From assembly GCA_045546315.1 (NCBI GenBank), contig JAZQCN010000036.1, positions 108,329 to 172,328 of the forward strand: DNA of 64,000 nt, written 5' to 3'. Positions 9,389 to 51,271 of this stretch are shown in pieces. The notes below the pieces were generated by a model. That model searched no databases and was not told the origin of the DNA. It worked only from the letters and a program-made list of their open reading frames with translations. Each line of letters begins with the position of its first letter. Positions within the stretch are counted from its first letter, which is position 1. This stretch comes from Clostridia bacterium. Its GTDB lineage: Bacteria; Bacillota; Clostridia; UBA1381; UMGS1253. The position numbers and the translations under genes are program-made.

Positions 9389-9424
9389 TTTCAAAGGCAA
9401 ACCAAAAGAAAAGAGGTTTTCATT

Positions 9425-9916
9425 ATGCCAGAAAAGAAAAAGTTTAAGTTTAACATCATCGATGCGATTGTTCTCGTGGTTTTAATTGCAGCAATTTGCT
9501 TTGTCGGCTACAAGCTGTTTTTCGACCGCATGGGCGAAGGCTTTAATCAAAATGAGCAAGAGCTCAGCTACACCATCGAATTCTTCTGTGAAGAGTCGCC
9601 GACCTTCGCTGCAGAGCTCGTACAAATCGGCGATGCGGTTTCCGACGAATATAAGGATATTCCGCTCGGCACCGTAACAAGCGTTGAACTTGCGCCGTCT
9701 GTTTCCTATGCAACAAATGCAGCAGGCGAATATGTTGCATCCACGAAAGAAGGCTACAGCTCCGTAAAAATCACAACAGATTTAACCTTTGAAGGCGCAC
9801 CGTACCAGCACGGCTTCCAGATAGATGTCTCCAAGTACGGTGTCGGTCACACGATGACCTTCCGTGCAGGCAAAGCAAAGCTCTACGGCCGTATTTCCGC
9901 GATTGAACAAAAATAA
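9425..9916 (+). CDS. DUF4330-like single-pass membrane protein
   Basis: 163 aa. N-terminal anchor FKFNIIDAIVLVVLIAAICFVGYKLF. Embedded in the glycan operon. Confidence 0.45.
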   Translation: MPEKKKFKFNIIDAIVLVVLIAAICFVGYKLFFDRMGEGFNQNEQELSYTIEFFCEESPTFAAELVQIGDAVSDEYKDIPLGTVTSVELAPSVSYATNAAGEYVASTKEGYSSVKITTDLTFEGAPYQHGFQIDVSKYGVGHTMTFRAGKAKLYGRISAIEQK

Positions 9917-9930
9917 GGAGGCGATTGACT

Positions 9931-25296: not shown

Positions 25297-25836
25297 ATGC
25301 AAAACCGCAACAAATCTTTAAAAATCGTTCTCTCCGCTTTCTTTTTGGCGCTTTCATATGTTCTGCCGTTTTTGACGGGGCAAATCCCGGAAATCGGCGC
25401 GATGCTGTGCCCGCTGCACATTCCGGCGCTTCTGTGCGGCTTTATCTGCGGCTGGCCATACGGCTTGGCGGTCGGCTTTATTGCACCGCTTTTCCGCTCG
25501 ATGGCACTCGGCATGCCGCCAATGTTTCCAACGGCAATTTGTATGGCATTTGAGCTTGCGGCATACGGCGCGGTCGGCGGCTTATTCCACAGATTACTGC
25601 CGCGCAAAAAGGCATATATCTACTGCTCACTCGTGTGCGCAATGCTTGCAGGCAGAGTCGTTTGGGGCATAGCGATGGCAATCTGCCTCGGTTTTGGCGG
25701 CAGCGGCTTTACCTTTGCCGCATTTATCGCCGGCGCATTTACAGACGCAATCCCCGGCATTATTCTGCAGCTTATTATCGTTCCCGTACTGGTGATGGTG
25801 CTGGAAAACCCCAAAATATCAGTTTTAAAGGATTAG
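25297..25836 (+). CDS. ECF-transporter S-component-like membrane protein
   Basis: ORF 25243-25836. ATG 25297 (MQNRNKSLKIVLSAFFLALSYVLPFLTGQIPE) is preferred, after AAAGGA. About 180 aa with about 6 TM segments. Confidence 0.5.
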   Translation: MQNRNKSLKIVLSAFFLALSYVLPFLTGQIPEIGAMLCPLHIPALLCGFICGWPYGLAVGFIAPLFRSMALGMPPMFPTAICMAFELAAYGAVGGLFHRLLPRKKAYIYCSLVCAMLAGRVVWGIAMAICLGFGGSGFTFAAFIAGAFTDAIPGIILQLIIVPVLVMVLENPKISVLKD

Positions 25837-25840
25837 CGCT

Positions 25841-26908
25841 ATGAGTCCAAACGAAAAAACCTGCAATTTACTTCTTAAACACTACGAAAGCTATCCGCAT
25901 CTGCAAATGCAGGATATATTCAAATTCATTCACCAAAGTGCATTCGGCTGTGAGCATATGGTATCCTCTTTAGAGGCGGTAACGGACTATATCCGCACAG
26001 AATATGAAACTGCTGATTTATCCAGCGCACCGCTCATTGTACCGCTCGACGGCGCATACAGCCGCGTGTATCTCACCTATTTAGACAATGGCTTAAGCGC
26101 ACAAACGCTTGGCAAGCTTTTCTACCTGTCTGCTAAGGCGGAAACAAACGACAAAGCAGATGCAGAAAGCAAGCTTTCCGTTGCAGCAGAGCTTGTGCGC
26201 CGGGGCAAGCTTCCGTTTTCTGCCGAAGCCTTCGAAAATGCGGCAGCAAAGTGGAAGGCAGACGGCTACCCTGCCGTGCATCATTCCGACAGCTTCAGAA
26301 ATACATACAAACCGGCCTACCGCGTAATTGCAAACAAATTCGTTCCGTTTTTATCGCTTTTTGCAAAGCTCGATCAAATGCTTGCAAACGGCACGGTGAC
26401 GCTCGCAATAGAAGGCGGCAGTGCAAGCGGCAAATCCACGCTGAGTACACTTTTGGAAATGCTTTACGGCTGTACGGTACTGCATATGGATGATTTCTTT
26501 TTGCGCCCGGAGCAAAGAACGCCCGAGCGCTATAAGGAAGTCGGCGGCAATATTGATTATGAGCGGTTTTCAGAAGAAGTGCTCCTACCGCTCGGCAAGC
26601 GCGAGCCGATAAGCTACCGAAAATTCGATTGCTCTACACAAACGCTATCCGCACCGTGTACAGCTTTGCCTGAAAAGCTGACCATAATTGAAGGCGTGTA
26701 TTCTATGCATCCGAAATTTGAAAATTACTATAACTTATCTGTATTTTTAGACATTACGCCTGCCCTGCAAACCGCGCGCATTTCCAGGCGAAACACGCCG
26801 GCGCTGGCAGAGCGGTTTCACAACACCTGGATTCCGTTGGAAAACCGATATTTCGAAGAAACGCAAATCCAAGGGCGCTGCAGCATAACCGTTTCGGTGC
26901 AGGAATAA
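25841..26908 (+). CDS. two-domain protein: uncharacterized N-terminal domain plus uridine-kinase-like P-loop kinase
   Basis: 355 aa. Walker A IEGGSASGKSTLS in the C-terminal half. 4-nt gap to the S-component gene. Confidence 0.5.
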   Translation: MSPNEKTCNLLLKHYESYPHLQMQDIFKFIHQSAFGCEHMVSSLEAVTDYIRTEYETADLSSAPLIVPLDGAYSRVYLTYLDNGLSAQTLGKLFYLSAKAETNDKADAESKLSVAAELVRRGKLPFSAEAFENAAAKWKADGYPAVHHSDSFRNTYKPAYRVIANKFVPFLSLFAKLDQMLANGTVTLAIEGGSASGKSTLSTLLEMLYGCTVLHMDDFFLRPEQRTPERYKEVGGNIDYERFSEEVLLPLGKREPISYRKFDCSTQTLSAPCTALPEKLTIIEGVYSMHPKFENYYNLSVFLDITPALQTARISRRNTPALAERFHNTWIPLENRYFEETQIQGRCSITVSVQE

Positions 26909-26966
26909 ATTCCCCCCTGCTTTACATTGCCGTTTGCGCGTGATAGAATAATGATTGGTGATGAAA

Positions 26967-27596
26967 ATGACAAAAAAAGAACGCCTGCTGCTTATAGCGC
27001 AGGACTTGGAAAATGCATATCCGGATGCGGTATGCTCGTTAGATAACGCGACTGACCCGTGGAAGCTGCTCGTTTCTGCAATTCTTGCAACGCAGTGCAC
27101 GGACAAGCGCGTGAATATGGTAACACCGGCACTGTTTGACCGCTTCCCGACGATTGCAGACTTTGCAAAAGCGACCGCGGAGGAGGTTATGCCCTACATC
27201 CGCTCGACCGGCTTTTTTAACCACAAGGCGGCAAACATCGTCGGCTCGGCGAAAAGGATTATGGATAGTTTCGGCGGCGCAGTGCCGCGCACGATGGAAG
27301 AGCTCACCACGCTTCCCGGTGTCGGCAGAAAGATTGCAAATCTTTTAATCGGCGACTGCTTCGGCGGCGATGCGATTGTCGTCGACACGCACTGCAAGCG
27401 TTTAACCTACCGCATGGGGCTTACAAAGCAGACCGATCCGACCAAAATCGAAATGGAGCTTTGGAAAATCATGCCGCCCGGTATCGGCAGCGACTTTTGC
27501 CACCGCATTGTCTACCTCGGGCGCGAATACTGTGTGCGCAATCCAAAATGCGATATTTGTCCGGTAAATGCGCATTGTAAAAAGGTATTGAAATAA
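26967..27596 (+). CDS. nth: endonuclease III (DNA-(apurinic/apyrimidinic site) lyase)
   Basis: ORF 26955-27596; start is ambiguous (26961 or 26967). HhH-GPD motif LPGVGRKIANLL and a C-terminal four-Cys cluster CVRNPKCDICPVNAHC. Confidence 0.9.
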   Translation: MTKKERLLLIAQDLENAYPDAVCSLDNATDPWKLLVSAILATQCTDKRVNMVTPALFDRFPTIADFAKATAEEVMPYIRSTGFFNHKAANIVGSAKRIMDSFGGAVPRTMEELTTLPGVGRKIANLLIGDCFGGDAIVVDTHCKRLTYRMGLTKQTDPTKIEMELWKIMPPGIGSDFCHRIVYLGREYCVRNPKCDICPVNAHCKKVLK

Positions 27597-27635
27597 CTAT
27601 AAAACACAAAAAAGGCTCCCCTGTGTAAGGGGAGC
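27572..27635 (+). repeat. left direct repeat of the island (covers the last 7 nth codons, stop and terminator-type hairpin)
   Basis: GCATTGTAAAAAGGTATTGAAATAA ... AAAAAAGGCTCCCCTGTGTAAGGGGAGC. It matches 30456-30508 with a few mismatches and an 11-nt insertion. Confidence 0.8.
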
Positions 27636-27636
27636 T

Positions 27637-27718
27637 GTCATTTTGTAAAAATGACTGAGGGGGTTGTTACAACCCTCCCGTCGCGCTTCGCGCGCCACCC
27701 TCCCTTACACAGGGAGGG
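27637..27718. repeat. cluster of four consecutive short hairpins at the island's left junction
   Basis: GTCATTTtgtaaAAATGAC; GAGGGggTTGttacCAACCCTC-like; CGCGCttcGCGCG; CCCTCCCttacacaGGGAGGG. The loop of the last is the complement of the CTGTGTA loop in the flanking repeat hairpin. Confidence 0.6.
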
Positions 27719-27723
27719 CTTTT

Positions 27724-28035
27724 TTAGTTTTTCACCATATTTTTCAAAAGCTTTTCAACCAACTCTAATTGCTCATCATCCAGCTTCTTTAACAAATCTG
27801 TAATTCTGCTCAGCTTCTCCGGATTTTTATTCTCCAAGTCAAAAAACGCACTCGGTGTTATGCCGAGATAGTCACAGATATAAAGCAATACCGGCAAGGA
27901 CGGAAATCCTTGTCCAGTTTCAATATGGTTAATATAACCTGCATTTTGTCCAATAGACAAACTCATTTCGCGAGCAGAAACATTTTTTTGCTCACGCAAC
28001 TGATATAGTCGCATTCCAAAATCTATCTCGTACAT
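27724..28035 (-). CDS. XRE-family helix-turn-helix transcriptional regulator (possible controller protein)
   Basis: ORF 27724-28053. ATG at 28033-28035 is preferred (GAAGGA RBS). HTH LREQKNVSAREMSLSIGQNAGYINHIETGQ. Divergent from the MTase gene. Confidence 0.8.
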   Translation of the reverse strand: MYEIDFGMRLYQLREQKNVSAREMSLSIGQNAGYINHIETGQGFPSLPVLLYICDYLGITPSAFFDLENKNPEKLSRITDLLKKLDDEQLELVEKLLKNMVKN

Positions 28036-28107
28036 TTCCTTCACCACCCACATTATATTTTATGCCATACACTGACGCAAGATATGCTTTTTAATCAATT
28101 ATTTTTG

Positions 28108-28136
28108 TTGTAATATGCTTTTTTATATGATATAAT
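28108..28136 (+). promoter_or_regulatory. promoter candidate for the MTase-nuclease operon, overlapped by an 11-bp direct repeat
   Basis: TTGTAA (28108-28113), 17 nt, TGaTATAAT (28128-28136). ATATGCTTTTT occurs at 28082-28092 and again at 28113-28123, inside the spacer. Confidence 0.45.
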
Positions 28137-28179
28137 TTTTAAAATACAACTTTTTAAAGCATAAGGATGGTAATTCGCC

Positions 28180-29295
28180 ATGGCAAATGAAAATCTATCA
28201 AAAGCTAAGAATGCAAAAAATGACGAGTTTTATACACAGTACGAGGATATACAAAGAGAAATCAATGCGTATTTAGAATACAATCCCGATGTTTTTAAAG
28301 GCAAAACAATCCTGCTTCCCTGCGACGACCCCGAATGGAGTAACTTTACAAGGTTTTTTGCACAAAACTTTGCAAGCTTTGGCTTGAAAAAACTGATTAG
28401 TACAAGCTATGCGACAGAAAGCAAGGGAAATAACGGCTACTATCAGCTTTCCTTATTCGAAGAGGAGTCCCCGCAATTCGACGAAAACAAAACAAAGACA
28501 CACGGAAAAATATTTACGCTTACGCGCGACAGCAATCATTCCGGCGCAATTGATGTTGACGATTTGGAATGGCAGTATCTCGAAGGTGACGGCGACTTCC
28601 GCAGCGACGAGGTGAAGGCTCTAAGGGATGAAGCGGATATTATTGTGACAAATCCACCGTTTTCTTTGTTCAGAGAATTCCTTGCTTGGATCGTTGAAGG
28701 AAGCAAAAACTTTATAATCATTGGAAACCAAAACGCTATAACATACAAAGAGGTTTTTCCTCTGATAAAAGAAAACAAAATATGGCTTGGCAAGGGATTT
28801 AAAGGTGGTGCAACACATTTTATAAATAAATATTATACCGATTATGCTACCGCGAGTGACCATCGTGAAGGAATGATTCGTGTATCAGGGGTAGTGTGGT
28901 TTACAAACCTCGACCATGGTCGCAGACATCAACCTTTAAGCCTGATGACAATGGAAGATAACATAAAGTTCAGCAAGCATAAAGAAATCCGAAACATTGG
29001 TTACAGAAGTTATGATAATTATAATGCAATTGAAGTTCCATTCACCGATTCTATTCCCAGTGATTACGATGGTGTTATGGGCGTACCAATTACTTTTTTG
29101 GATAAGTACTGTCCTGAACAATTTGAAATCATATGGCAGGCAAGTGGCAACGCCTATGCAAATGCTCCTAAAGAAGTTCTAAAAATGCTCAATTTTGATC
29201 CAACTGTAAAATATGGCGGTGGACTTGGGGCGGCTGTTGTTGACGGGAAAGCAGTATACTCTCGAATACTCATAAGAAAGAAGGTAGTCAAATGA
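28180..29295 (+). CDS. N6-adenine-type DNA methyltransferase, EcoRI-methylase-like family
   Basis: 371 aa. N-terminal [12 protein letters not shown]. Catalytic motif [27 protein letters not shown]. Confidence 0.75.
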
Positions 29296-30455
29296 TTACA
29301 ACCCTGAAAACCGACATCACCGTAGCCGACATTTGCAAAGGCTTTGTCTATAATGAATACGAGGGCAAGGGCTTATTTGGGCTGTCCGGCAAGCTTGTAA
29401 TTCAGCCGGAATATCAAAGAAACTACATCTATGCCGACGGCAAGCGTGATGTTGCCGTGATAGACTCTATTATCAAGGGCTATCCGCTCGGGCTTATCTA
29501 TTTTACAAAGGTTGCAGAAGATAAATATGAAGTGCTCGACGGGCAGCAGCGCATCACGAGCTTCGGCCGCTTTGTGACGAACAAATTTGCCATAACCGAT
29601 ACAAACGGCATTCCGCGCTATTTTTCCGGACTTGCCACAGATATACAGCAAAAGATTATGGAAACACCGCTTACGATTTACATCTGTGAAGGCACGGAGA
29701 GCGAAATCAAGGCATGGTTTAAAACCATCAATATTGCAGGCGTCCCCTTAAACGAGCAGGAGCTTTCTAACGCAATTCATTCCGGTCCGTTTGTAACCAA
29801 GGCGAAAGAAGAATTTTCAAACAGTCAAAACGCCAACATTCAGAAATGGAGCGCTTATATCTCCGGCAGTGTATTACGGCAGGATTATCTGCGCACAGCG
29901 CTTGAATGGGTAAGCAAGGGCAACATCGACGATTATATGAGCCGTCACCGCTACGACGAGAATATAAACGAATTAAAATCCTATTTCACAAGCGTGATAG
30001 ACTGGGTTTCAAGCGTATTTACCGATGTAGAAAGTGAAATGCGCGGTCTGCCTTGGGGCGAGCTTTACGAAAAGTATCACAAAAATTCCTACGATCCCGA
30101 TGTCGTGGCTGCGCATCTACGCTCACTTTATGCAGATTTTTATGTAAAAGACAAAAGAGGCATTTACGAATTCATTCTCGGCGGCTGTACAGATCACAAG
30201 CTGTTAAACATCCGCATCTTCGACGAGCCGACGAAAAAGACGGTTTATGCCATACAGACCGAAAAAGCGAAGGGCGAATGCATATCAAACTGTCCGCTCT
30301 GCGCCGTAGGCTTTGACAGCAACAAAACGCGCATTTGGAAAATAAGCGAAATGGATGCCGACCATGTTACCGCCTGGAGCAGAGGCGGCAGCACAGACAT
30401 GAAAAATTGTCAGATGCTTTGCAAGACACACAATAGAGCCAAGGGCAATAAATGA
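29292..30455 (+). CDS. DUF262 (ParB-like NTPase/nuclease superfamily) - HNH endonuclease fusion protein
   Basis: 387 aa. DUF262 signatures [11 protein letters not shown] and [10 protein letters not shown]-terminal zinc-HNH CPLC...[32 protein letters not shown]. The start overlaps the MTase stop (ATGA). Confidence 0.75.
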
Positions 30456-30508
30456 GCATTGTAAAAAAGTATTGAAATGAAAAAAGGCTCCCCTATGTAA
30501 GGGGAGCC
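30456..30508 (+). repeat. right direct repeat of the island (displaced nth 3' end plus terminator hairpin)
   Basis: GCATTGTAAAAAAGTATTGAAATGA AAAAAGGCTCCCCTATGTAAGGGGAGCC. Reading frame g-CAT TGT AAA AAA GTA TTG AAA TGA gives HCKKVLK*. Confidence 0.8.
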
Positions 30509-30515
30509 TTTTTTG
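30486..30515. terminator. bidirectional intrinsic terminator (island/nth side versus convergent PTS gene)
   Basis: A-run, then GGCTCCCCtatgtaaGGGGAGCC, then TTTTTT. Confidence 0.75.
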
Positions 30516-30521
30516 CATATT

Positions 30522-32561
30522 CTAAAACTCTATTTCTATCACCGTATCACCGGCCGAAACCTTGCCGCTTGCAACGGTTTTGATGTCCTTTATGCCCTCT
30601 GCATCGGCAATCACCATCGGTGTGACGGTTTTATAGCCGGCGCGCTCGATTGCCGCCTTGTCAAAGCGAATCAGCGCATCGCCCTTTTTCACTTTATCTC
30701 CATCCTTGACAGCATATTCAAAATGCTTTCCCTTCAAATTCACCGTGTCGATGCCGACATGAATCAAAAGATTAAATCCATCCTCGGTTTGAATACCGAT
30801 GGCGTGCTTGGAGTCGACCAGATTACAAGCTACACCGTCACACGGCGCAAATATCACACCTGCCATCGGGCGGATAGCAATACCCTTGCCTAAGATTCCC
30901 TGACTGAATACCTCGTCCTCAACCTTTTCAAGCGGTACAATTTCACCATCTGCATATGCGCCAAGCGTAAATGCGCTGACTTTCGTCTCCACATGCATAT
31001 CCAGATAATCCTCTAAGTTCGACTTCACAACCGTTACCGTCGGACCGTAAATCACCTGCACGCCGTTGCCCTTTATAATCACACCGCTTGCACCGCTCTG
31101 CTTTAAGAGTGCATCCGACACCTTGCTGCCGTCCTTTACTGTAATTCTAAGGCGCGTTGCACAGCAGTCCACATCGGAAATATTTTCCTTACCTCCGAGA
31201 CCTTTTACAATCAGCTCCGACTGCTTGTTTCCCTGCTTTGCCGCCTCAACATCCTTTCGGGTATAGAGCTTCGTTTCCTCGCCCTCGTCCTCGCGGCCCG
31301 GCGTTTTATAGTTAAACTTCTTAATCATAAAGCTGAAAATGCCCCAGTAGATAAAGAAATACACAATACCGACAAGCACGATATAAATCCAGTTCGTCTT
31401 CGCGTTACCCTGCAGCACACCAAAGAGCACCAAGTCAATAATACCGCCGGAAAATGTCATACCCACGCCGACACGCAAAATGTGCATCAGCATAAAGGAA
31501 AGACCGGCTAAAACGCAGTGCACACCGTACATCAGCGGTGCAACGAAAATAAACGTAAACTCCAACGGCTCTGTGATACCCGTGAGCATCGCGGTCAGTG
31601 CAGCTGAGATTAAAAGGCTGCCCGCGACCTTGCGTTTTTCCGGCTTGGCGCATAAATACATCGCCAATGCCGCGCCCGGCAGACCGAATATCATGAACGG
31701 GAACTTACCTGCCATAAAGCGCGTCGCTTCCACATTAAACACCGTTGTAGACTTCGATGCCAGCTCTGCAAAATAGATGTTCTGCGCGCCCTGCACAAGC
31801 ACGCCGTCAATTACCGCGCTGCCGCCGACACTCGTCTGCCAGAACGGAATATAGAACACATGGTGCAAGCCAAACGGAATGAGCGCACGCTCGATGATGC
31901 CGTAAATCCATGTGCCGGCATAGCCGGATGCAAGCACAAGATTGCCAAGCATAGAGATGCCGCGCTGAATGAGCGGCCAGATAAAGAACAGCAAAATGCC
32001 GACCAAAACATACACCAGTGCCGAAATAATCGGCACAAAGCGCGTGCCGCCGAAAAATGCCAGCACCGGCGGCAGCTCGATTCTGTAGAAGCGGTTATGC
32101 AGCGCCGCAACACCCAAGCCGACAATAATACCGCCGAACACACCCATCTGCAGCGTGGTGATACCGAGCACACTCGCCGTCGAGTTGGTGAGCATACTCT
32201 CTGCGCCGCCGCGGGCATTAATTAAGGCAAAAATCGTGGTGTGCATAATTAAAAATGCCACTACGCTTGAAAGCGCCGCAACCTCTTTTTCCTTCTTTGC
32301 CATACCGATGGACACACCGATGGCAAACAAAAGCGCAAGGTTATCAAACACGGCGCTGCCCGCCTTGCTCATAATATCCAGCACCGTATACAAAAGGCTG
32401 CCCGGATAAATTACGCTTGTCAGGCGGTAGGCTTCCAGCATCGTCTGGTTGGTAAATGAGCTGCCGATGCCCAAAAGCAGACCTGCGACCGGCAAAATTG
32501 CAATCGGCAGCATAAACGAACGCCCGACTCTTTGCAATACGCCGAAAATTTTATCTTTCAT
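30522..32561 (-). CDS. PTS glucose/N-acetylglucosamine-family transporter, fused EIICBA
   Basis: ORF 30522-32771. ATG at 32559-32561 (MKDKIFGVLQRVGRSFMLPIAILP) is preferred, with GGGAGG RBS. EIIB DCCATRLR. EIIA LIHVGIDTVNLKGKHF. Confidence 0.85.
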   Translation of the reverse strand: MKDKIFGVLQRVGRSFMLPIAILPVAGLLLGIGSSFTNQTMLEAYRLTSVIYPGSLLYTVLDIMSKAGSAVFDNLALLFAIGVSIGMAKKEKEVAALSSVVAFLIMHTTIFALINARGGAESMLTNSTASVLGITTLQMGVFGGIIVGLGVAALHNRFYRIELPPVLAFFGGTRFVPIISALVYVLVGILLFFIWPLIQRGISMLGNLVLASGYAGTWIYGIIERALIPFGLHHVFYIPFWQTSVGGSAVIDGVLVQGAQNIYFAELASKSTTVFNVEATRFMAGKFPFMIFGLPGAALAMYLCAKPEKRKVAGSLLISAALTAMLTGITEPLEFTFIFVAPLMYGVHCVLAGLSFMLMHILRVGVGMTFSGGIIDLVLFGVLQGNAKTNWIYIVLVGIVYFFIYWGIFSFMIKKFNYKTPGREDEGEETKLYTRKDVEAAKQGNKQSELIVKGLGGKENISDVDCCATRLRITVKDGSKVSDALLKQSGASGVIIKGNGVQVIYGPTVTVVKSNLEDYLDMHVETKVSAFTLGAYADGEIVPLEKVEDEVFSQGILGKGIAIRPMAGVIFAPCDGVACNLVDSKHAIGIQTEDGFNLLIHVGIDTVNLKGKHFEYAVKDGDKVKKGDALIRFDKAAIERAGYKTVTPMVIADAEGIKDIKTVASGKVSAGDTVIEIEF

Positions 32562-32617
32562 ACTACAACCTCCCAAGGATTTATGTTTGTAGTATGAACA
32601 AAGAAAAAGCAAATTAT

Positions 32618-32660
32618 GAAAAAATTTAAAAAGCAGGAAAACCAATTTGTTTTCCTGCTT
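32618..32660 (-). terminator. intrinsic terminator between hemW and the PTS gene
   Basis: AAGCAGGAAAAC (32631-32642) pairs with GTTTTCCTGCTT (32649-32660). On the minus strand it is followed by TTTTTAAATTTTTT. Confidence 0.65.
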
Positions 32661-32735
32661 TAAATGCTTTGTTTCTCTCCCTCTGATACAGCGCATATGC
32701 CGTTTGTTTCTTCGCCCTGCCGGGCAGGCTCGCAA

Positions 32736-32759
32736 AACGACACACAGGTCGTTCCCTAC
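32736..32759. repeat. GTAGGG-anchored hairpin repeat (family member)
   Basis: AACGACacacagGTCGTTCCCTAC. Near-identical, in inverted orientation, to 36606-36631 (GTAGGGAACGACctatgtGTCGTTCC). Confidence 0.65.
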
Positions 32760-32778
32760 ATATTCCATCACTCGAACA

Positions 32779-33897
32779 CTATATCAACTCGCACAAAATC
32801 GAATTGCTTACCTGTATGCCCTTTTTTGTGAAAGCAATTCTTCCGTCTTTGCAAACCATAAACCCATTTTGGATATACAACTCCAGCTTCTTTTTGTGTG
32901 CATCATAAAAGTCATAGCCGAATTTTTCGGAAAATGCCGAAAGTGAAATGCCTTCTTTTAAACGAAGTGCCATCATAATATACTCACTTGCCAAATCTGC
33001 CTGTGTAAGTTTTGTCTGCTCTGCAATCGGTGCTTTGCCGCCCTCGAGCATTTGCAAATACTGCGTTAAATCGCGCACATTTTCCGTGCGCACGCTACCG
33101 TCAAAGCCGTGTGCGCCGAGCCCTGCCGCCAGATACGGACTGCAGTGCCAATATTTTAAATTGTGCCGGCTTTCAAAGCCGGATTTTGCATAATTTGAAA
33201 TCTCATAATGCACAAAGCCGTGCGCATCCAGAATTTCACCCGTGCGCGCATACATTGCGCGCTCACTGTCCTCATCAGGCAAATCCCGCCCGTCTGCATA
33301 CAGCTTTTCAAACGGCGTGTCCGGCTCGACAATTAAAGAATACGCGCTGATGTGCGTCGGCTCGTAGGAAAGTGCAATATGCAGATTTTCCTCAAAGCTT
33401 TCAACCGTCTGCTTGGGAATACCGCTCATCAAATCCAGGTTGATGTTTTCAAAGCCTGCGTTTTTTGCATCTGTGATACACACCTTTGCCGCTGCGCTGT
33501 CGTGCACGCGCCCGAGCAGCTTCAGTTCTGCATCGTGAAAGCTTTGCACGCCGATGCTTAAGCGGTTAATGCCCATTTTACGATACGCGGAAAGCTGATT
33601 AAAATCCGCCGTCGCCGGATTACACTCCGTTGTAATTTCTGCGTCCTGTTCCACGCTGTGGCGTGCATAAACTGCATCTAAAATCCGCTCTGTCTGCGCC
33701 GCGGTAAGCACGCTCGGCGTACCGCCGCCAAAAAAGATGCTGTCAATGTGTTGCGCCTGCTGTATGGAAATCTCACGCACAAGCGCAGAAACATACCTTT
33801 CACGCATCGCCTCATCCGCCGGGGCAGACAAAAAGTCGCAGTAGGCACACTTTTGTACGCAAAACGGAATATGCAAATATAAACCAAAACTATTCAT
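32779..33897 (-). CDS. hemW: radical SAM heme chaperone HemW (oxygen-independent coproporphyrinogen-III-oxidase-like)
   Basis: 372 aa. [10 protein letters not shown] radical-SAM cluster. Overlaps the lepA stop by 8 nt; the lepA-hemW pairing is classical. Confidence 0.85.
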
Positions 33898-35689
33898 CGA
33901 GCTTGAGTACAGACATAAACGCCTCCTGCGGCAGCTCTACGCTGCCCACCTGGCGCATACGCTTTTTACCTTCCTTCTGCTTTTCAAGCAGCTTCTTTTT
34001 ACGGGTAATATCGCCGCCGTAGCACTTGGCAAGCACATCCTTGCGCATTGCCTTAACGGTTTCACGCGCAATAATCTTGCCGCCGATTGCCGCCTGAATC
34101 GGCACCTCAAAGAGCTGGCGCGGAATCGCTTCCTTCAGCTTTTCGGCAATTCGTCTGCCGCGGGCATACGATTTTTCGCGGTGCACGATAAACGAAAGTG
34201 CATCGACCATATCGCCGTTTAAGAGCATATCGAGCTTCACCAGATCGGAGCGCTGATAGCCGTAGAGCTCATAGTCAAACGATGCGTAGCCGCGCGTGCG
34301 CGATTTGAGCGCATCGAAAAAGTCATAAATAATTTCATTTAATGGCATATCGTAATGCAGCGATACACGGTCAGCATCGATATACTGCATATCCTTATAC
34401 ACACCGCGTCTGTCCTGGCAAAGCTCCATAATATTGCCGACATAATCCTTCGGCACCATAATGTCTGCCTTTACCATCGGCTCCTCCATATACTCAATCT
34501 CCGCAGCCGGCGGCAGATTGGTCGGGTTGGAAATATCGAAATACTCGCCGTTGGTCTTTTTTACCTTATACACAACGCTCGGCGCGGTTGTAACCAGGTC
34601 GAGGTTATATTCACGTTCGAGGCGTTCCTGGATGATTTCCATATGCAAAAGCCCCAAAAAGCCGCAACGGAAGCCAAAGCCGAGCGCCACGGAGGTCTCC
34701 GGCTCAAACACCAGAGAAGCATCATTTAACTGCAGCTTCTGCAGTGCATCGTTTAAATCATTGTATTTTGCGCCGTCCGCCGGATAAATACCGCTAAATA
34801 CCATCGGCTGTACATCACGGTAGCCTTTAAGCGGCTCTTTTGCCGGGCGGTCCGTTGTTGTAACGGTATCGCCTACACGCGCATCGCGCATCGACTTGAT
34901 GCTTGCCGCAATATAGCCAACCTCACCGGCAGAAAGGCTGTCCGCCTTCTGCATGCCGACCGGCTTTAAATACCCGACTTCCACAACCTCGTACTTTGCG
35001 CCGGTTGCCATCATCAAGATGGTCTGCCCCGCCTTGATTGTGCCTTCCTTGATGCGGACATAGACTATAACGCCCTTATAGCTGTCGTAGTACGAGTCGA
35101 AAATCAGCGCCTGCAGCGGTGCACTCGCATCGCCAGTCGGCGGCGGTACACGCTTTACAATTTCCTCCAAAACGGCAGGTATGTTGATGTTATTTTTCGC
35201 CGAAATCAGCGGCGCTTCCTGCGCCTCGATGCCGATAACGTCCTCAATTTCATTTTTAACCGCTTCCGGTCTTGCCGCCGGCAGGTCAATTTTATTGATG
35301 ACCGGCACAACCTCCAAATCGTGCTCAATGGCAAGATAGGTGTTGGCAAGCGTCTGCGCTTCGATGCCCTGCGAAGCATCAACAACCAAAATCGCGCCCT
35401 CGCAGGCTGCAAGCGAGCGAGACACCTCGTAGTTAAAGTCAACATGTCCCGGGGTATCAATCAGGTTTAAGACATAGTCCTCCCCGTCCTGCGCCTTGTA
35501 CTTTAAGCGCACGGCGCGCGCCTTAATCGTAATGCCGCGCTCACGCTCAAGGTCCATGTTATCTAAAAGCTGACTTTCCATGTCGCGCTGCTCAACCTCG
35601 CCGGTATTTTCCAACAGGCGGTCTGCCAGGGTTGACTTGCCGTGGTCAATATGTGCAATAATAGAAAAATTTCGAATGTTCTTTTGCAT
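33890..35689 (-). CDS. lepA: translation elongation factor 4
   Basis: 599 aa. G1 motif [24 protein letters not shown], and a conserved LepA C-terminal domain. Confidence 0.95.
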
Positions 35690-35768
35690 ATACTTTATCC
35701 ATTCCTTTATTTAGTGCATAGTATGATAGTTTATTGTACCACAGAATTGCAGATTTGTCACCTGTTTT

Positions 35769-36167
35769 TTAATAGCGTTTGCGATAGAACAAATATGCGC
35801 CAGATATTAAAAGCGTTTGAAAACAAGCGGTACAGGCCATAAGCATCTGCCAATCTTCCTTTTTCATAAGCGCAAACACAATAGATAACATATACTCTAC
35901 AGCTATCGAAATCCAAAGTGCCGTCGCATAGCTTTTTTGAGAAAGCCATATGTTACGCTCATCTTCATTTTCACACTGATACGCTTTAAGCTTTTCCGGA
36001 TGCTTGCAAAACTTGTAAATGCGTACACTTTGCAAAATAGCCACGCCCAACGCACCTGCACCGTAGCCGTCTAAAGGAAAATCGGTTACAACATCAGCAA
36101 CCAACAAACCCAATCCCAAAATCCATCCAATAACCGTACCCCAAATCAATCTTTTTGGTATTTTCAT
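35769..36167 (-). CDS. small integral membrane protein, translationally coupled to an HTH regulator
   Basis: 132 aa with 3-4 TM segments. 4-nt overlap (ATGA) with the upstream regulator gene. Confidence 0.5.
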
Positions 36168-36367
36168 TGTTCGCCCTCCTCAAAAATAAATACATCCTCA
36201 ATATGACACTCAAAAGCCTTTGCAATCTTGTATGCCAACAGTATAGACGGATTGTATCGCCCGTTTTCCAAAGAAATAATTGTCTGCCTCGAAACCTGCA
36301 AAGCATCCGCCAACATTGCCTGCGTCATATTTCGCTGCTTCCGATACGCTTCAATTCTGTTTTTCAT
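36164..36367 (-). CDS. short XRE/Cro-type HTH transcriptional regulator
   Basis: ORF 36164-36418. ATG at 36365-36367 is preferred: [41 protein letters not shown]. Confidence 0.75.
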
Positions 36368-36463
36368 CCACTCACCTTCCTTAAACGTAAAGTCAACTTT
36401 ACATTTAATATAGCACATCCCTTTTCAAATGTCAAGCATGCTTTACATTTTTATAAAGCATAC

Positions 36464-36631
36464 GGGCGATTCGTGAATCGCCCCTACGAGCACAAATTGC
36501 AAGCAGTAGCGTAGGGCGATGATTTATCATTGCCGTAAAATTATGCCCCATTGACGGCGCGGCACACAGGCACGCGCCCTACGATGCTGATTAAAATGTA
36601 TATTTGTAGGGAACGACCTATGTGTCGTTCC
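36464..36631. repeat. cluster of four GTAGGG-anchored hairpin repeats in alternating orientation
   Basis: 36464-36487 GGGCGATTCgtgAATCGCCCCTAC. 36511-36534 GTAGGGCGATGATttATCATTGCC. 36556-36582 GGCGCGgcacacaggcaCGCGCCCTAC. 36606-36631 GTAGGGAACGACctatgtGTCGTTCC. Confidence 0.7.
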
Positions 36632-36674
36632 GCCAATTCTACACAAACAAAAAGAACGGTCAAGCATTGACCGT

Positions 36675-36935
36675 TCACTGTTCAAGTAGTTTTTGAAAAT
36701 CCTCAAGCAAAGCTTGCGGCGATACATCAAATATCTCGCAAAAGCACGCAAATTCATAATCCGTTACAATGCGCAGATTCTTTTCTATGCGACTAATCAT
36801 TTGCTGGTCCATATGCACACCCAACACCTGCATTTTTGCCGCTAATACCTCCTGCGACATGCCTGCTGCGCAACGCAAACGCTTAACGGAAGCTCCGACA
36901 ACATTCTTATGCTCGTTAAAGTCAATCTTCTTCAT
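36675..36935 (-). CDS. XRE-family HTH transcriptional regulator
   Basis: ORF 36675-37073. ATG at 36933-36935 is preferred: MKKIDFNEHKNVVGASVKRLRCAAGMSQEVLAAKMQV... Confidence 0.7.
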   Translation of the reverse strand: MKKIDFNEHKNVVGASVKRLRCAAGMSQEVLAAKMQVLGVHMDQQMISRIEKNLRIVTDYEFACFCEIFDVSPQALLEDFQKLLEQ

Positions 36936-37054
36936 CTTACCAAACCCTTTTACGTCAATCAAATGTAATTTCAGTTTGACTTTAACATATATTTTGTCGT
37001 ATAATACGTTATATAAACGTAAAATAGATATTTTTAGGGAGAAGGTATACACAA

Positions 37055-37210
37055 ATGAAAACTGCAAAAGCAAAACTTCTGCTTTGGTACTACAGAAGAA
37101 AAATGAACAGGCTGATTGCCAAAGGTATGCCTTTGACCGACGAAAAAGTAATTCGCGCTAGTCAAAAATGCGACAAATATATAAATCTATGTTTGGATTA
37201 CAAGCGATAA
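37055..37210 (+). CDS. Spo0E-like small protein (aspartyl-phosphate phosphatase family), below the ORF-track length cutoff
   Basis: Manual translation, 51 aa: MKTAKAKLLLWYYRRKMNRLIAKGMPLTDEKVIRASQKCDKYINLCLDYKR. It has the helix - SQxxDxxI pattern of Spo0E-family proteins. GAAGG lies upstream and a terminator downstream. Confidence 0.45.
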   Translation: MKTAKAKLLLWYYRRKMNRLIAKGMPLTDEKVIRASQKCDKYINLCLDYKR

Positions 37211-42300: not shown

Positions 42301-43977
42301 CGGCGCAACATTCGACCAATCCGGGAAGGTGCCCGCATTGCGGATTTCTTTAAGACCGCGCTCGACATACTTTCTGTCCTGCTCGACGAGGTAAGTAAAG
42401 CCGAGCATCATCATGCGGCGCTCGATGCTTCTTGCCGCACTCAAAATATTTCTGCCGTTTGCAAAGGTGTACGTTTCACAAGGTGTAGTCAAAAGCAAAT
42501 CTGCATTGTCCTTGGTTTCTGCATACCAAATCGCGCACTGCTCATCTGTCGCAATTTTATCCGTTACTTCCGTTCTGCTGTTGATAAACAATCTCGGATG
42601 TGCATTTAAGTTCGACACGTAGCTCTTCTCCGTTACCGGCTCGCCGATTTTTGCCCAGTTTGTACCGGTTGAGCCGTAATACTTTGCATCGCCGAAATCC
42701 GGTGCCGCATCGCTGTAAATGATAAAGTTATCCAGCAAAATGGTGTCGCCCGGCTGCAGCACCGGGAAAATGCGCATCTGCACCTCGGAATAGCTTTCTA
42801 CTTCTTTACTGAACGAAACGCTGTCCACTTCCTTGCCGTTTAAATAAGCAACAACGCTCTTTTTGTTAAAATCAAACACAGCCTTGATGTGGTCCCAAAC
42901 CTGCGTTCCGCTCGGCACAAAACCATTCTTTGCTGCGGCAAAGTTCGTGCCTGCCGCATCCTGAAGATAGATTGTCATCGAGCTTTGCGAGCCCTTGGTA
43001 AACTGTGCATAAAATTCCACCGTCAGCGTCGTCGGCTTTTCGCCGAGCGTCAGATTCTTTTCAAAGCGCGGTGTCTTTTGTACCCTTTCCAGATTGGTTG
43101 CGCGAATGACCTTTTCCTTATCCAGTAGAACCGGCTTAATATAGTCCGATGTACTGATTTTTGAAAAGTTTGCTTCACTGCCCGTCGGGACATAGCTATC
43201 GCCATTTAAGGAACAATCGTATGTAAACAAGGTATACTTGCCCGCCGGTACGGAAAGTGCCGGTGCAGGCGTCTTATCAAACACCGCCATAATTTCCTCC
43301 GGTGTCACAATTTTTTCTTCCTTCTCGCCACCGCCCAGAATATCCTCGGCGGTCACATTATCTGTCGTGGAAAATACAATATCGTCGACAAAAGCTTCTT
43401 CCCCTGCACCGATGGTCGACGTAAAACGGATTTGCACCTCGGTCGTATCCAAAGCCTTGAATGCTTTGCCTTCCGAGCTCAATTCCCCATTAACATACAC
43501 ATCGAAGGTGCCGGCTTTAAAGTCCATCACAATCTTGTACGAATTCCACTCGCCCTTCGTGTCGCCGTTTACCAGGGTTGTGCCCGTGCCGCCCATGTAG
43601 GCAACCGACGCAAACTTACAGCCCTCCGATTTCGCGCGGTAGGTCAGCGTCAAATTCGTCAGCGCCGAAAAGTCAAAATGCTTTTCAAAGCGCGGACCGT
43701 TCGTGCCCTCGGTATTGGTGTTGGTAAAGCGCATCACCATACCGGTTTCATCCTTGTAACCGGCAATTTTCGTCGTTGCCGCGTTGGACTGCTTTGTCCA
43801 TGCAAGGCTGTCCTTGCTGCTGGTCGCAAGGGGCTGTCCGTCGGAATAGCTTTCAAAATCGTCCGAAAACAAAATGTTGCCTTCCGTACTTGCGTTGTCT
43901 TTTGCCGCAAACACATTTGTGATGCCGCAACCAAGCAGCATGCAGATGCTCAAAAGCAAGCAAATTCCTTTTTTCAT
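39397..43977 (-). CDS. large secreted multidomain polysaccharide lyase (DUF4962/heparinase II/III-like core)
   Basis: 1526 aa. Signal/lipobox-like MKKGICLLLSICMLLGCGITNVFA. Two ConA/LamG-like N-terminal modules (..FVDDIVFS, ..LLDNFIIYSD). HPRLFINSRTEVTDKI and QNTLIVNPGKGWDQ (heparinase II/III-like). Cu-amine-oxidase-N-like insert GRTLVPVRFISESFDAQVSW / SRTLIPLRALVEALGKKVLW. Discoidin-like region. C-terminal Big_2 FTSSNPAVATVDANGVVTFVGKGDTTIAATY. Confidence 0.6.
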   Translation of the reverse strand: MKKGICLLLSICMLLGCGITNVFAAKDNASTEGNILFSDDFESYSDGQPLATSSKDSLAWTKQSNAATTKIAGYKDETGMVMRFTNTNTEGTNGPRFEKHFDFSALTNLTLTYRAKSEGCKFASVAYMGGTGTTLVNGDTKGEWNSYKIVMDFKAGTFDVYVNGELSSEGKAFKALDTTEVQIRFTSTIGAGEEAFVDDIVFSTTDNVTAEDILGGGEKEEKIVTPEEIMAVFDKTPAPALSVPAGKYTLFTYDCSLNGDSYVPTGSEANFSKISTSDYIKPVLLDKEKVIRATNLERVQKTPRFEKNLTLGEKPTTLTVEFYAQFTKGSQSSMTIYLQDAAGTNFAAAKNGFVPSGTQVWDHIKAVFDFNKKSVVAYLNGKEVDSVSFSKEVESYSEVQMRIFPVLQPGDTILLDNFIIYSDAAPDFGDAKYYGSTGTNWAKIGEPVTEKSYVSNLNAHPRLFINSRTEVTDKIATDEQCAIWYAETKDNADLLLTTPCETYTFANGRNILSAARSIERRMMMLGFTYLVEQDRKYVERGLKEIRNAGTFPDWSNVAPMIPSELMYGVACFYDWCYDALTPEERTEIIDILKKQALWQFVRSYDGVISVEIAKGTSNRTMIANTSAAGIALAIADEEPQLAEYLLTYALKHGRQPVEAFGADGGFPEGSSYWGLATEYMVYMLAQLESAFKPEFEKPEAITWFFDNPVVENMGDYWVYTAGPKKNFNFGDASDTIEGDPTPYWLAARYNKPLYNWALDKRSGVNYPYFALLYKDVNMSSDVGDTPLDKTFDAKDDAQVATFRSSWTDDNALYAAMQGGYNGTGHMFKSLGTFVIDANGQRFIRTLGRSDYSSLYDANMYYQKRAEGQNTLIVNPGKGWDQVETAYAKFIRHEEAENEAFSILDMTQTSYDFASAKRGMYITKGRNSIVLQDEVTMKKPSELWWFAHATGDITLSADKKSALLTVGNERMYAAITEGPADATFEIMAARPLPTSPTAPDEVYQDIYKLAIHMTNVTEMTLAVEFVPLKEGEAAPETLTPVTKMDTWSVSDNAISTARQAGNTVALFLNSPVVLDKGYRTYVDTANMDVYPFTDNGRTLVPVRFISESFDAQVSWYEPSQTVSVTKGNTTIQLQIGSDKMLVNGEERILDVPAQTYNSRTLIPLRALVEALGKKVLWDDRGLIVISDSAVEYTEAEKVNIISLLSERVLLNGAEMKSFTTDKTDYTVLTDGNIPTVTLASGAPVVQNGNTASFTIGEKSYTITFVTDKFAGQEGTNSPNNITELKLSASLSGVPAELSRQSVAHVTFSAGHDKYVEFGTVDNIISDELVNRWSAAKPAWICYEFAEPVSLYAFGLAGLGTASGPRSFIFNAEVSVDGINWEQVLDTRTSGTTNMPEIFELGGKTAKYFRINGQGDANGGSYNSYTEVCFYTSKEQMETDMQYWPIYFAGNSVNGSVGETKALVLKAYNGKGEEVLAGGVVFTSSNPAVATVDANGVVTFVGKGDTTIAATYEGKYAKVEASVTLTCK

Positions 43978-44067
43978 AGTATCCTCTCCTTTTATGTTTA
44001 TTAAATTTGTATATTCTGATTGAATGCATTAAAACGGAAATAATGCCTTTTCTCGCGACGTAGCTCT

Positions 44068-45639
44068 TCAGTTCAGCTGAATATCAATAGGCAATTTGCC
44101 TTTTGGTTCGAATTCACCGGTTAAAACCTCAAGAGGGTATTTCATATCCACAGGTCCTAAGCTGTAAATGACTCTCGGGAAATGCGGCGCTTTTTCTATG
44201 GAATACGGGTTTCCGAAATGGACAATCGTTGAAAGCTTAGACTGCATTGCTGCCATAAGATTGGTTATCTTTTCGGTCAGATTTTCACTACCTGCGTATG
44301 CACCGACTTCGGCAAAGGTTATAAAGTGAACTTCATCCACCTTTGTGCTTTCAAAGCAAACATTTTCAATCTGCTTTTTGTTCGGAAACACATTGATTGC
44401 CACACAGTTAGCATCAGGAAACTTTTCTTTGATTTCATCAATGATTTTATTCGCTGCAGCCCAGGAGCCTCCGGTTTTTTCCGTCCATTCTCTTACTTCG
44501 TAATTTGAATCGTCGTATAGATTTTCTGCCAAAACAACAAACAAGCGTTTCTTGCCGGCTTCGAGCTTTGCGGAAACATTTTCGTCTTTTATAAGACAAA
44601 TGCCTTCACGCCAAACCCTTTCGATACACTGTTTCTGATACTCCGAAATTTCAGTTGCGGTTGCAGGCTTCATGGTGGAGTTCTGTGCCCGAATCACTCT
44701 TGCTACGGCTTCGTTTAATCGCTCTTCGGTAAAAGCACCGTTTTTATATGAATTCAGAAGATATTCATATGAGGTTTTAAAGGGAACACGATAATTCGGC
44801 AGAACCATATCTATTCCTGCAGCGATTGCGATTCCGTAGCACTTATCTTCGCTGTGCTTCTGCAAAATCCCCATCATTGCAAAGGAATCGGTTAATATGA
44901 GTCCGTCAAAGCCCTGATTTCTTAATATGGACAGAAGCTTTTTAGACATACTCGCGGGATAAACAGGATCAATTTTAGGATAAACAACATGCTTTGTCAT
45001 AATGCCGGGAAGATTTGCTTCTTTCATTGCATTTGCATACGGAACCATATCAACATCAAGGATATCTTTTTCCGTAAGCATCGATAATCCTTCTTCCATA
45101 TGGGTATCCACTGTTATATCTCTTCCGCCGGGAAAATGCTTTGCAGTTGCAAACATTCCGTTATCCAGGTACCCTTTCAGCACCGCAGTTGTAATTTTAG
45201 CAACATAATTTTCATCACTTCCGCAGGTTCTGATAACGCGGCTGCGCGCATTGCCCATAACCATATCAACATTGGGTGCCCAGACTGTATTATAGCCTAA
45301 TTTTTTAGCTTCAATCGCTGTTATGCAACCATGCTGATATGCAATCTCTTCATCGTTTAAAGATGCCAGCGCCATCATGGAAGGAATCTTGTATTTACTC
45401 ATAGGAAATCCGGTTTCCATATCGCTGCATATAAGCACCGGATATCCTGCATGCGCATTTATTCTTTTAATTTCTTCAGCATTTCCGTTGACACATGGAA
45501 CCTGAACGGCACCTATGCTTTTTTTCTCAAGCATTTCATAAACAAAATTACGGTCCTCTTCATCGAGGTAACCTCTTACACAGAGAAGCTGCCCTATCTT
45601 TTGTTCGACTGTAAGTTCACGAATATTAAGCTCTTTCAT
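44068..45639 (-). CDS. glycoside hydrolase family 3 protein (cytoplasmic)
   Basis: ORF 44068-45693. ATG at 45637-45639 is preferred (MKELNIRELTVEQKIGQLL). KHFPGGRD motif. No signal peptide. Confidence 0.7.
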   Translation of the reverse strand: MKELNIRELTVEQKIGQLLCVRGYLDEEDRNFVYEMLEKKSIGAVQVPCVNGNAEEIKRINAHAGYPVLICSDMETGFPMSKYKIPSMMALASLNDEEIAYQHGCITAIEAKKLGYNTVWAPNVDMVMGNARSRVIRTCGSDENYVAKITTAVLKGYLDNGMFATAKHFPGGRDITVDTHMEEGLSMLTEKDILDVDMVPYANAMKEANLPGIMTKHVVYPKIDPVYPASMSKKLLSILRNQGFDGLILTDSFAMMGILQKHSEDKCYGIAIAAGIDMVLPNYRVPFKTSYEYLLNSYKNGAFTEERLNEAVARVIRAQNSTMKPATATEISEYQKQCIERVWREGICLIKDENVSAKLEAGKKRLFVVLAENLYDDSNYEVREWTEKTGGSWAAANKIIDEIKEKFPDANCVAINVFPNKKQIENVCFESTKVDEVHFITFAEVGAYAGSENLTEKITNLMAAMQSKLSTIVHFGNPYSIEKAPHFPRVIYSLGPVDMKYPLEVLTGEFEPKGKLPIDIQLN

Positions 45640-50992: not shown

Positions 50993-50994
50993 AA

Positions 50995-51271
50995 GGCGCC
51001 TTCACTTAGGGATACAACGGTTTTAGCCGGCAATTTACCGAAAACAGTTCACAAAAAATCCGCATTATACGCGAGTATGATGCGGATTTTTATGTTCCTC
51101 TTTTCGACAAAATTTCTCATCTAAAACTGCCAAAGGCACCTTAAAGGGTAATAGTTTGGATAAAGAGCAAGGCAAAAACGACCGACATCCTCGCGGATCT
51201 CGGTCGTTTTTAACGCAGCTATTTGCCAAAATATTGCTTTTTAAGGCGTTTTATCCCTAAGCGAAGACGCC
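50995..51271. repeat. about 277-bp intergenic module bounded by a 20-bp imperfect inverted repeat, containing two strong hairpins
   Basis: GGCGCCTTCACTTAGGGATA (50995-51014) versus TATCCCTAAGCGAAGACGCC (51252-51271), 18/20 complementary. Internal terminator-like hairpins lie at 51053-51091 and 51174-51211. Confidence 0.6.

Follow-up and report, generated by a model that had tools for sequence, protein, structure and literature searches.

In a 64,000-nt stretch of the genome of a Clostridia bacterium (UMGS1253 in the GTDB lineage; contig JAZQCN010000036.1, positions 108,329 to 172,328; hereafter the window), the gene for endonuclease III, nth, is followed by a compact restriction-modification (R-M) cassette that is enclosed by imperfect direct repeats. 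nth occupies 26967..27596 on the plus strand, and its identity is given by Pfam matches to HhH-GPD, HHH and EndIII_4Fe-2S and by the NCBIfam model nth (199.6 bits). On the far side of the cassette, the right host flank begins with a convergent phosphotransferase system (PTS) EIICBA gene, at 30522..32561 on the minus strand in the open reading frame (ORF) list, the orthologues of which in the related loci L092, L101 and L116 (PTS_EIIC, EIIB and EIIA_1) adjoin hemN and lepA as in the window. Between nth and the PTS gene are found a putative controller gene (C, 27724..28053, minus strand), a DNA methyltransferase gene (M, 28180..29295, plus strand), and an endonuclease gene (R, 29292..30455, plus strand). 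A sequence-only reading of this arrangement had recognized in it the att-like signature of an element integrated into the 3' end of nth.

The two repeats extend from 27565 to 27635 and from 30449 to 30507. By pairwise MAFFT alignment and with a repeat finder, they are identical at 55 of the 59 aligned positions (93%) and span 59-71 nt, with four substitutions (left/right: 27571 C/A, 27584 G/A, 27595 A/G, and 27623 G/A) and a single alignment gap of 12 nt, ACTATAAAACAC, which is present in the left copy only. Both start with the hexamer TAAATG, at 27565-27570 and 30449-30454. The left copy, on the plus strand, comprises the end of nth (VNAHCKKVLK-stop), the sequence CTATAAAACAC, an A6 run and a hairpin, H1, and the right copy, translated in the nth frame, reads (N)EHCKKVLK-stop. 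Identical blocks between the copies measure 12-15 nt, the longest of them (15 nt) sitting within the hairpin. The repeats had thus been correctly perceived by the sequence-only reading, as had their few substitutions and the HCKKVLK-stop kept in frame by the right copy, whereas the insertion that it gave as 11 nt measures 12 nt and the left limit lies 7 nt further left than it had placed it.

Within the window, the 30-nt nth part of the repeat, with up to three mismatches allowed, occurs at these two sites only, as does the 26-nt hairpin part; none is expected for either from shuffled sequence (100 shuffles for the nth part), and neither half can therefore be put down to chance similarity. The stem (A6-GGCTCCCC...GGGGAGCC-T6) does look like a generic terminator, a metagenome-assembled genome (MAG) may be the source, and contigs of relatives break at the H1 hairpin, all of which would fit a repeat that is not biological, whether through fortuitous resemblance of terminators or through chimeric assembly of two strains. 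Such an origin is nevertheless extremely unlikely, given that the coding part is repeated as well, that the 7 nt shared at the junction between R and the nth fragment are too few for a k-mer mis-join, and that the arrangement is in frame and functional-looking.

The limits of the insert were placed at the two hexamers. At the left junction, TAAATG (27565..27570, plus strand) is made up of parts of the nth codons V-N-A. At the right junction (30449..30454, plus strand), it falls within the last native codons of R, AAT AAA TGA, and once the A at 30455 is included, 7 nt are shared with host-type nth (GTAAATGAG) as a microhomology. That TAAATGA (30449-30455) belongs to R is indicated by the homologues of this protein, which are 386-387 amino acids long in nearly all those listed and end in KGN(K/R)-stop in 11 of the 11 printed in one set and 23 of the 24 printed in another; the genes of two of them, at L248 and L249, have the same AATAAATGA end. 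Since these bases are native to R, their match of 6-7 nt to nth (GTAAATG(C/A)G) is a feature of the junction and not part of a larger site. The inserted segment would correspond to 27571..30454 (2,884 nt, plus strand) and would carry a spare nth 3' end, a 3' untranslated region (UTR), a hairpin element, and the C, M and R genes. Beyond it, at 30455..30480 on the plus strand, stands what appears to be the displaced original 3' end of nth, (E)HCKKVLK and a TGA stop (GAGCATTGTAAAAAAGTATTGAAAT, the nth allele of L102 and L117). When 27571-30454 is deleted in silico, nth is restored in frame (GTA AAT G/AG CAT TGT AAA AAA GTA TTG AAA TGA), a single bidirectional hairpin terminator remains, and the PTS gene lies 41 nt downstream of nth. 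This restored layout upholds the earlier proposal that an element entered nth at its 3' end and restored the end of the gene.

The origin of the two gene ends was approached through related loci, which are designated here by L numbers. The window nth falls into a 90% identity cluster of 23 members, the contexts of which were compared. Positions 27569-27629, that is the last 28 nt of nth and the 33 nt that follow, are 100% identical to L103, the contig of which ends at that point, and the nth end, UTR and start of H1 of the left copy are also present 3' of nth in L104. Five differences from L103 occur in the 35 nt that precede 27569, and nth as a whole is 89.5% identical; by our own calculation, the probability of finding no difference over the 61 nt is about 0.001. 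The allelic affinity of nth switches at 27568/27569: the body of the gene is of host type and nearest to L102 (95%), while its 3' end from about 27569 belongs to the inserted segment. The displaced right copy, for its part, has the L102/L117 variant at both of the coding positions at which it differs from the left copy, and the two copies are different nth alleles by these comparisons. Because TAAATG and a shift in allelic type are found at either end of 27571-30454, and because deletion of the segment restores nth, the left copy is regarded as a spare gene end brought by the insert and the right copy as the displaced host end. The block as a whole is an insertion into the 3' end of nth at TAAATG that left the gene end reconstituted.

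R-M gene units have reportedly been found inserted with long target duplications (Nobusato et al., 2000). In the class defined by Furuta et al. (2010; PMC2853133), the insert contains R and M, is smaller than 20 kb, lacks mobility genes, and is flanked by a repeat of more than 30 bp that is single-copy at empty sites. Descriptively, the present locus belongs to this known mode of cassette movement without a mobility gene, being a small unit of R and M, devoid of transposase or integrase, between direct repeats of more than 30 bp; in the empty sites of L101 and L116 there is one nth end and one hairpin, but nth identity there is 81-88% and the hairpin sequences are different. A host target of about 60-70 nt, made up of the nth end and terminator, might thus have been duplicated in situ, the copies then diverging by point mutation and a 12-nt deletion. 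The descriptive fit speaks for this scenario, but the repeats themselves make it improbable: repeat identities in the published cases range from 44/46 to 47/47 (PMC2853133), against 93% and an indel here, both coding differences are alleles that segregate in relatives, the left copy is fully identical to another lineage when the adjoining nth body is not, and the closest relative, L102, lacks the arrangement. The locus further departs from its class in that one of its boundaries consists of the 6-7 nt by which the stop region of R matches nth. The duplication is allelic and takes in, and so reconstitutes, the end of a coding gene, which is a twist on a known class, the less expected item being the hairpin family described below, which is abundant in phage-like contigs of gut and rumen Clostridia. 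Comparing the alleles of both repeat copies can tell recombination import from in-situ duplication.

The region downstream of nth differs widely between relatives. In L101 (nth 81% identical), the site is empty, with 36 nt and one bidirectional hairpin before the convergent PTS gene, and it is also empty in L116 (88%), where 90 nt with one long hairpin separate nth from PTS and the upstream synteny is that of the window. In L092 (93%), a DUF4832 gene and other DNA follow nth, and homology to the window resumes inside the 3' arm of the hairpin. Unrelated sequence begins about 10 nt past the stop codon in L102 (95%) and inside the 5' arm of the hairpin in L117 (89.5%), and in L112 (85%) nth is followed by a homologue of the C gene (about 85% nucleotide identity) with a different left junction. 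After nth, close relatives thus show five different states, and the breakpoints are not the same: counted from the nth stop, they fall at -27, +2 and about +10 or inside the hairpin arm, depending on the lineage. The site is strain-variable as had been anticipated, relatives showing empty sites or different cargo instead of the same three genes throughout. Identity to same-species relatives is 76-92% per 100 nt across 25.4-33 kb, vs. 96-100% outside. The neighborhood of the nth site is thus a recombination mosaic centered on the insertion site, and within the species complex the spacer between the convergent nth and PTS genes is probably a hot spot of recombination. The low-identity tract (25400-33000) covers the ECF-S, PRK-like, nth and PTS genes, and its amidohydrolase and lepA flanks are those that show 96-100% identity. 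Look-ups of the exact nth protein (at 209, 211 and 213 aa) and of the exact R protein gave no match, a scan of genome contigs with nth found no relative above 68% identity, and a scan of metagenomes with a 20-mer from the PTS flank returned chance matches only.

Host recombination is favored over an att/integrase system because the identity on the R side is limited to 6-7 nt in the stop region of R, because there is no recombinase gene, and because the breakpoints vary between lineages. Specifically, the cassette may have entered by homologous and microhomology-mediated recombination of the host, from a donor lineage in which it was already 3' of nth, a scenario judged to be a little better than an even bet. 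The segment would have carried the donor's nth 3' end, 3' UTR, and hairpin terminator, so that the spare end would complete the nth reading frame, and the last eight codons of the host gene with its bidirectional terminator would have been shifted beyond R, to survive as the right-hand repeat. Neither an element-encoded nor a dedicated recombinase would be needed. On one side, exchange would have been homologous, within nth; on the other, an illegitimate join would have formed at the 6-7 nt (TAAATGA) that nth has in common with the stop region of R. The process would amount to homology-facilitated illegitimate recombination or, equivalently, to a Campbell-type crossover of a circular copy at the hexamer. 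It predicts an empty allele ...CCGGTAAATGAGCATTGTAAAAAAGTATTGAAATGAAAAAAGGCTCCCCTATGTAAGGGGAGCCTTTTTTGCATATTC... and a donor allele with the structure nth(AHCKKVLK-stop)-CTATAAAACAC-element-C-M-R, devoid of the distal nth fragment.

Homology-facilitated illegitimate recombination has reportedly been documented in naturally transformable bacteria (de Vries & Wackernagel, 2002; Prudhomme et al., 2002). The present case resembles it by the microhomology on one side (3-10 nt in that process) and by the insertion of foreign DNA with partial duplication or deletion of recipient sequence, and would resemble it by a homologous anchor on the other side, where the allele switch at 27568/27569 is seen against a mosaic background. 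It differs in that the homologous crossover and the illegitimate join share one nth coordinate, and this is the first of several points that weigh against the proposed entry, as it would be a coincidence unless the intermediate was circular. Second, the sequence-only reading had predicted empty sites with nth, one hairpin terminator and the convergent PTS gene, and L101 and L116 do show a single nth end, a single hairpin and PTS, but their hairpin sequences differ from those of the window, their nth genes are 81-88% identical, and no same-lineage empty allele of the exact predicted sequence was recovered. Third, the L103 and L104 contigs end inside H1, such that a donor type carrying the cassette is not demonstrable there. 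Fourth, the 35 nt before the junction resemble L112 and not L102; the region being a mosaic, the labels of donor and recipient are applied to short tracts. Fifth, the TGA stop and the 12-nt deletion of the right copy are found in no relative, and decay after displacement has to be assumed. Finally, a trans-acting site-specific recombinase encoded outside the 64-kb window may conceivably have been at work.

Integrase-borne islands and prophages enter the 3' ends of genes (tRNA, tmRNA, and protein genes) and bring a replacement end, and integrase-less derivatives of the CIME type occur. In line with the sequence-only reading, the block could be a decayed or trans-mobilized islet, the attP of which mimics the 3' end of nth, with the repeats as attL and attR, an integrase located elsewhere, and a crossover that took place in the hairpin or else at TAAATG or close to it. 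The reconstituted, element-borne target end, the displaced original at the far junction and the imperfect direct repeat are the classic layout of such islands, the two copies do share identical blocks of 12-15 nt, and a C-gene homologue follows nth in L112 too. The absence of an integrase or recombinase between the repeats, which had been remarked upon earlier, was borne out: the ORF list, Pfam, and PADLOC detected in 27571-30454 the C, M and R genes only and no recombinase or other mobility gene. What would be the P arm of an att site is the conserved coding end of R, unchanged in unrelated contexts, and no dyad symmetry is apparent by eye at the junction hexamer. In addition, the left junction of L112 is different and other occupants of the site break elsewhere, leaving no crossover core common to the occupied alleles; the insert consists of 2.9 kb of cargo only; and the nth-end repeat has no match in IMG/VR viral contigs. 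Taken with the R-side identity and the breakpoints discussed above, these features make site-specific integration unlikely, and no specific evidence was found for the att interpretation put forward by the sequence-only reading. Taken alone, imperfect direct repeats at the 3' end of a gene are thus no evidence of an att site.

If entry did take place by host recombination, the locus offers a case, resolved to the base pair in uncultured gut Clostridia, of an R-M operon that lacks a recombinase of its own and enters the chromosome while leaving its target gene unbroken. The operon would travel with the spare gene end and terminator of its previous host and would join the new chromosome via a few microhomologous bases.

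The cargo itself has the appearance of an intact Type II R-M operon, of C-M-R organization. The C gene codes for a 109-aa protein with a helix-turn-helix (HTH) domain of the XRE/Cro type (Pfam HTH_19, HTH_31, and HTH_3), a putative controller protein that is matched in PADLOC by HTH_VI (4e-9) and Control_protein (2e-6). The M protein (371 aa) is an N6-adenine DNA methyltransferase of the EcoRI family (PF13651, 1.9e-128; PADLOC MTase_II, 1e-90), in which the catalytic domain is complete (profile positions 1-345 of 345) and an NPPF motif occupies residues 158-161. The R protein (387 aa) combines a DUF262 domain (Pfam GmrSD_N, 9e-20) with an HNH endonuclease domain (4e-7), has both the DGQQR and HNH motifs, and matches the PADLOC profile REase_II from position 8 to 372 of 372 (2e-90). 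The start codon of R overlaps the stop codon of M (ATGA), and the two genes are translationally coupled. From these assignments, M is predicted to protect host DNA and R to cut unmodified incoming DNA. No relative of solved structure was found by sequence for either protein.

The divergent control region between C and M (28054..28179) contains a promoter-like site, TTGTAA-17-TATAAT, at 28108-28136, and three 14-nt direct repeats resembling GATATGCTTTTTAA at 28081, 28112 and 28129 (span 28081-28142), which overlap this site. The repeats could serve the HTH protein as operators, but their conservation does not extend to the homologous region of L113. C-protein-controlled Type II R-M operons include PvuII, BamHI and Esp1396I. 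The cassette resembles them in having a small HTH regulator beside M and R that matches the Control_protein profile, and it differs from them in that C is divergent from M-R instead of lying upstream in the same operon, and in that three 14-nt direct repeats were found but not the canonical C-box palindrome. As for R, DUF262 nucleases of the GmrSD, BrxU and SspE types are Type IV enzymes that depend on modification and in the usual case have DUF1524 and no partner methylase (PMC12707154). The R protein has in common with them its N-terminal DUF262 domain (DGQQR) and a nuclease domain of the His-Me/HNH type; unlike them, it is always paired with an EcoRI-family methylase and matches a Type II endonuclease profile of PADLOC from end to end.

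A C-gene homologue is found in the same position and orientation in L113 as well as in L112. In L113, an Oscillospiraceae MAG, the whole C-M-R module is present without nth, with an R protein that is 87% identical, and the M-R pair was detected on 63 plasmid records, 3 phage records and 25 IMG/VR viral contigs. The cargo is therefore mobile, given that C-M-R or M-R occurs in unrelated places that include plasmids and phages. Together with the varied states observed after nth, these occurrences agree with the earlier view of a defense-like cargo that is horizontally acquired and strain-variable. DNA identity of the M-R pair (28180-30455) is conserved at 66-68% across phyla, and its hosts comprise Enterococcus faecium megaplasmids, plasmids of Lactococcus, Moraxella and Rhodococcus, and a Flavobacterium phage.

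The hairpin part of the repeat leads to a different subject. H1, considered a terminator of nth in the sequence-only reading, turned out to be the first hairpin of a dispersed two-hairpin family that is not specific to nth. The element present after nth (27607..27726) is a BIME/REPIN-like palindrome, composed of half A (27607-27666, plus strand) and half B (27669-27726, minus strand); a third copy of the hairpin, the inverted H2 (27698-27718), is contained in half B and followed by T6. H3 (30480..30514), beyond the displaced nth end, is a solo copy of the element's first hairpin with A6 and T6 flanks. A covariance model of the element, R1, scores half A at 60 bits (E 3e-15) and half B at 22.8 bits (E 1e-4), gives a partial match to H3 (30487-30507), and detects, with filters off, no further copy in the 64-kb window. 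One half of the repeat is thus a member of a dispersed BIME/REPIN-like family, and the other half is genuine nth. It had been conceded beforehand that the repeat might prove to be a common dispersed terminator unrelated to nth; as the hairpin is dispersed and the nth half is genuine, this holds for one half of it.

Folding energies of the element are -61 kcal/mol (z -7.3) and -63 kcal/mol (z -6.2), with terminator-like sites on both strands, and H3 is a perfect stem of 15 bp between A6 and T6, at -25.3 kcal/mol on either strand (z about -6.8); the right flank of H3, CTTTTTTGCATATTC..., is shared with L092. H3 is predicted to be a bidirectional terminator for M-R and PTS, and the element and H3 together probably insulate nth, C, M-R and PTS from one another as terminators. 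Against Rfam, no family was found on the element arrays, and the island returned sub-threshold, terminator-like noise only.

In a scan of IMG/VR, 11 contigs share the hairpin and the bases beyond it, and a wider hairpin pattern is found in at least 120 contigs, from which 107 distinct copies were extracted. The half-unit has the structure GGCTCCCC-loop-GGGGAGC-TG(T/G)CA-stem/loop-TGAC-TGAGGGG, and the full unit consists of two inverted halves. The second stem covaries strongly, one of its pairs being GC in 28 copies, CG in 12, UA in 6 and AU in 6. In the TG(T/G)CA column, about 40% of copies have G instead of T facing the A of TGAC, so that the second hairpin has a conserved G.A mismatch at its foot, which looks more like a protein-recognition feature than RNA pairing. 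In seven viral loci that total 68 kb, R1 has 98 hits, some of them in runs of about 17 half-units, and inverted doublets are also present in L041, L087 and L082. Copies of the element occur at loci between L081 and L227, for example L218 (7099-8027), L147 and L204.

REP, BIME and REPIN sequences are extragenic palindromes of Proteobacteria. The element is like them a short, extragenic, imperfect palindrome that is placed like a terminator between convergent genes and forms inverted doublets and, in some genomes, dense alternating arrays. It is unlike them in that the alignment shows no GTAG head, in its two hairpins per half and conserved TGAC-TGAGGGG tail, and in its occurrence at loci of 37-71% GC, mostly in phage-like contigs, with a single full copy in the window. 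No usable description of a REP-like element in Clostridia was found in the literature. Other identities were also considered: an integron attC site was ruled out, inspection showing the order of the GTTG/CAAC motifs to be wrong, and a dif/Xer site, a hammerhead core and Tn3-type inverted repeats were likewise rejected by inspection. Upstream of gene starts, the element shows a weak enrichment (47/103, vs. 4-29 in controls) that is partly an artifact of the GGAG in its stem. Pfam searches of the ORFs that adjoin it in viral contigs were uninformative, and alignment of the PTS-hemN spacer, by which its insertion site was to be defined, was too noisy.

The hairpins might have a part in the exchange itself, H1 and H3 serving as a recombination site through a hairpin-specific enzyme or cruciform-induced breaks, with the nth fragment as a hitch-hiker. 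The longest identical block of the repeat is inside the hairpin, as noted, and homology to the window is lost in the 5' arm in L117 and resumes in the 3' arm in L092. The presence of the family also varies between close relatives, L116 having an R1 copy without counterpart in the window, and a full element follows nth directly in a distant Acutalibacteraceae MAG (L041, 3082-3218). However, neither the TAAATG boundary nor the allele switch at 27569 would be explained in this manner, the element was not found beside the R-M module in 28 other loci, the window has one full copy only, and no candidate enzyme was identified, all of which makes hairpin-mediated exchange a doubtful proposition compared with entry by host recombination through nth and the microhomology. 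More broadly, the elements could act as portable modules for termination and recombination and give rise to hot spots at which phages and chromosomes swap defense cassettes, an idea to which little credence is given. The nth/PTS site would then be one docking point among others, served by a putative hairpin-recognizing enzyme. The family breaks metagenomic assemblies at precisely the sites that are variable, and it may mark such sites. In different assemblies, the contigs of close relatives stop at an identical base of the H1 loop (L103, 4254; L104, 1106) or in another copy of the element (L116, 7997).

The base composition of the insert, which had been thought AT-rich by eye, was computed. 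The insert has a GC content of 41.8%, against a window mean of 47.6% (standard deviation 2.3% for windows of the same size, of which 1.5% are as low). The impression was accurate for the insert overall and for the C gene (37.9% GC; 43% at third codon positions, GC3) and M gene (39.6%; GC3 38%), neighboring genes having a GC3 of 52-62%, but not for the R gene, which is near host values (45.9%; GC3 54%).

In L092, the closest of the long related contigs, the spacer that occupies the nth-PTS site (8640-10846) contains, in addition to the DUF4832 gene, two stretches that are 90-95% identical to positions 50991-51271 of the window, a spacer between genes for an AraC-type regulator and an oligogalacturonate-lyase-like protein, and, at about 10470-10680, a second hairpin element that belongs to a sister subfamily. 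Two further AT-rich stretches (about 42% GC) are present in the window, at 35600-37200 and 43500-45300. Pfam searches of the ORFs checked in these low-GC stretches detected no recombinase, which also bears against site-specific integration; the genes found there code for an HTH protein, a GDSL lipase and glycoside-hydrolase-type proteins.

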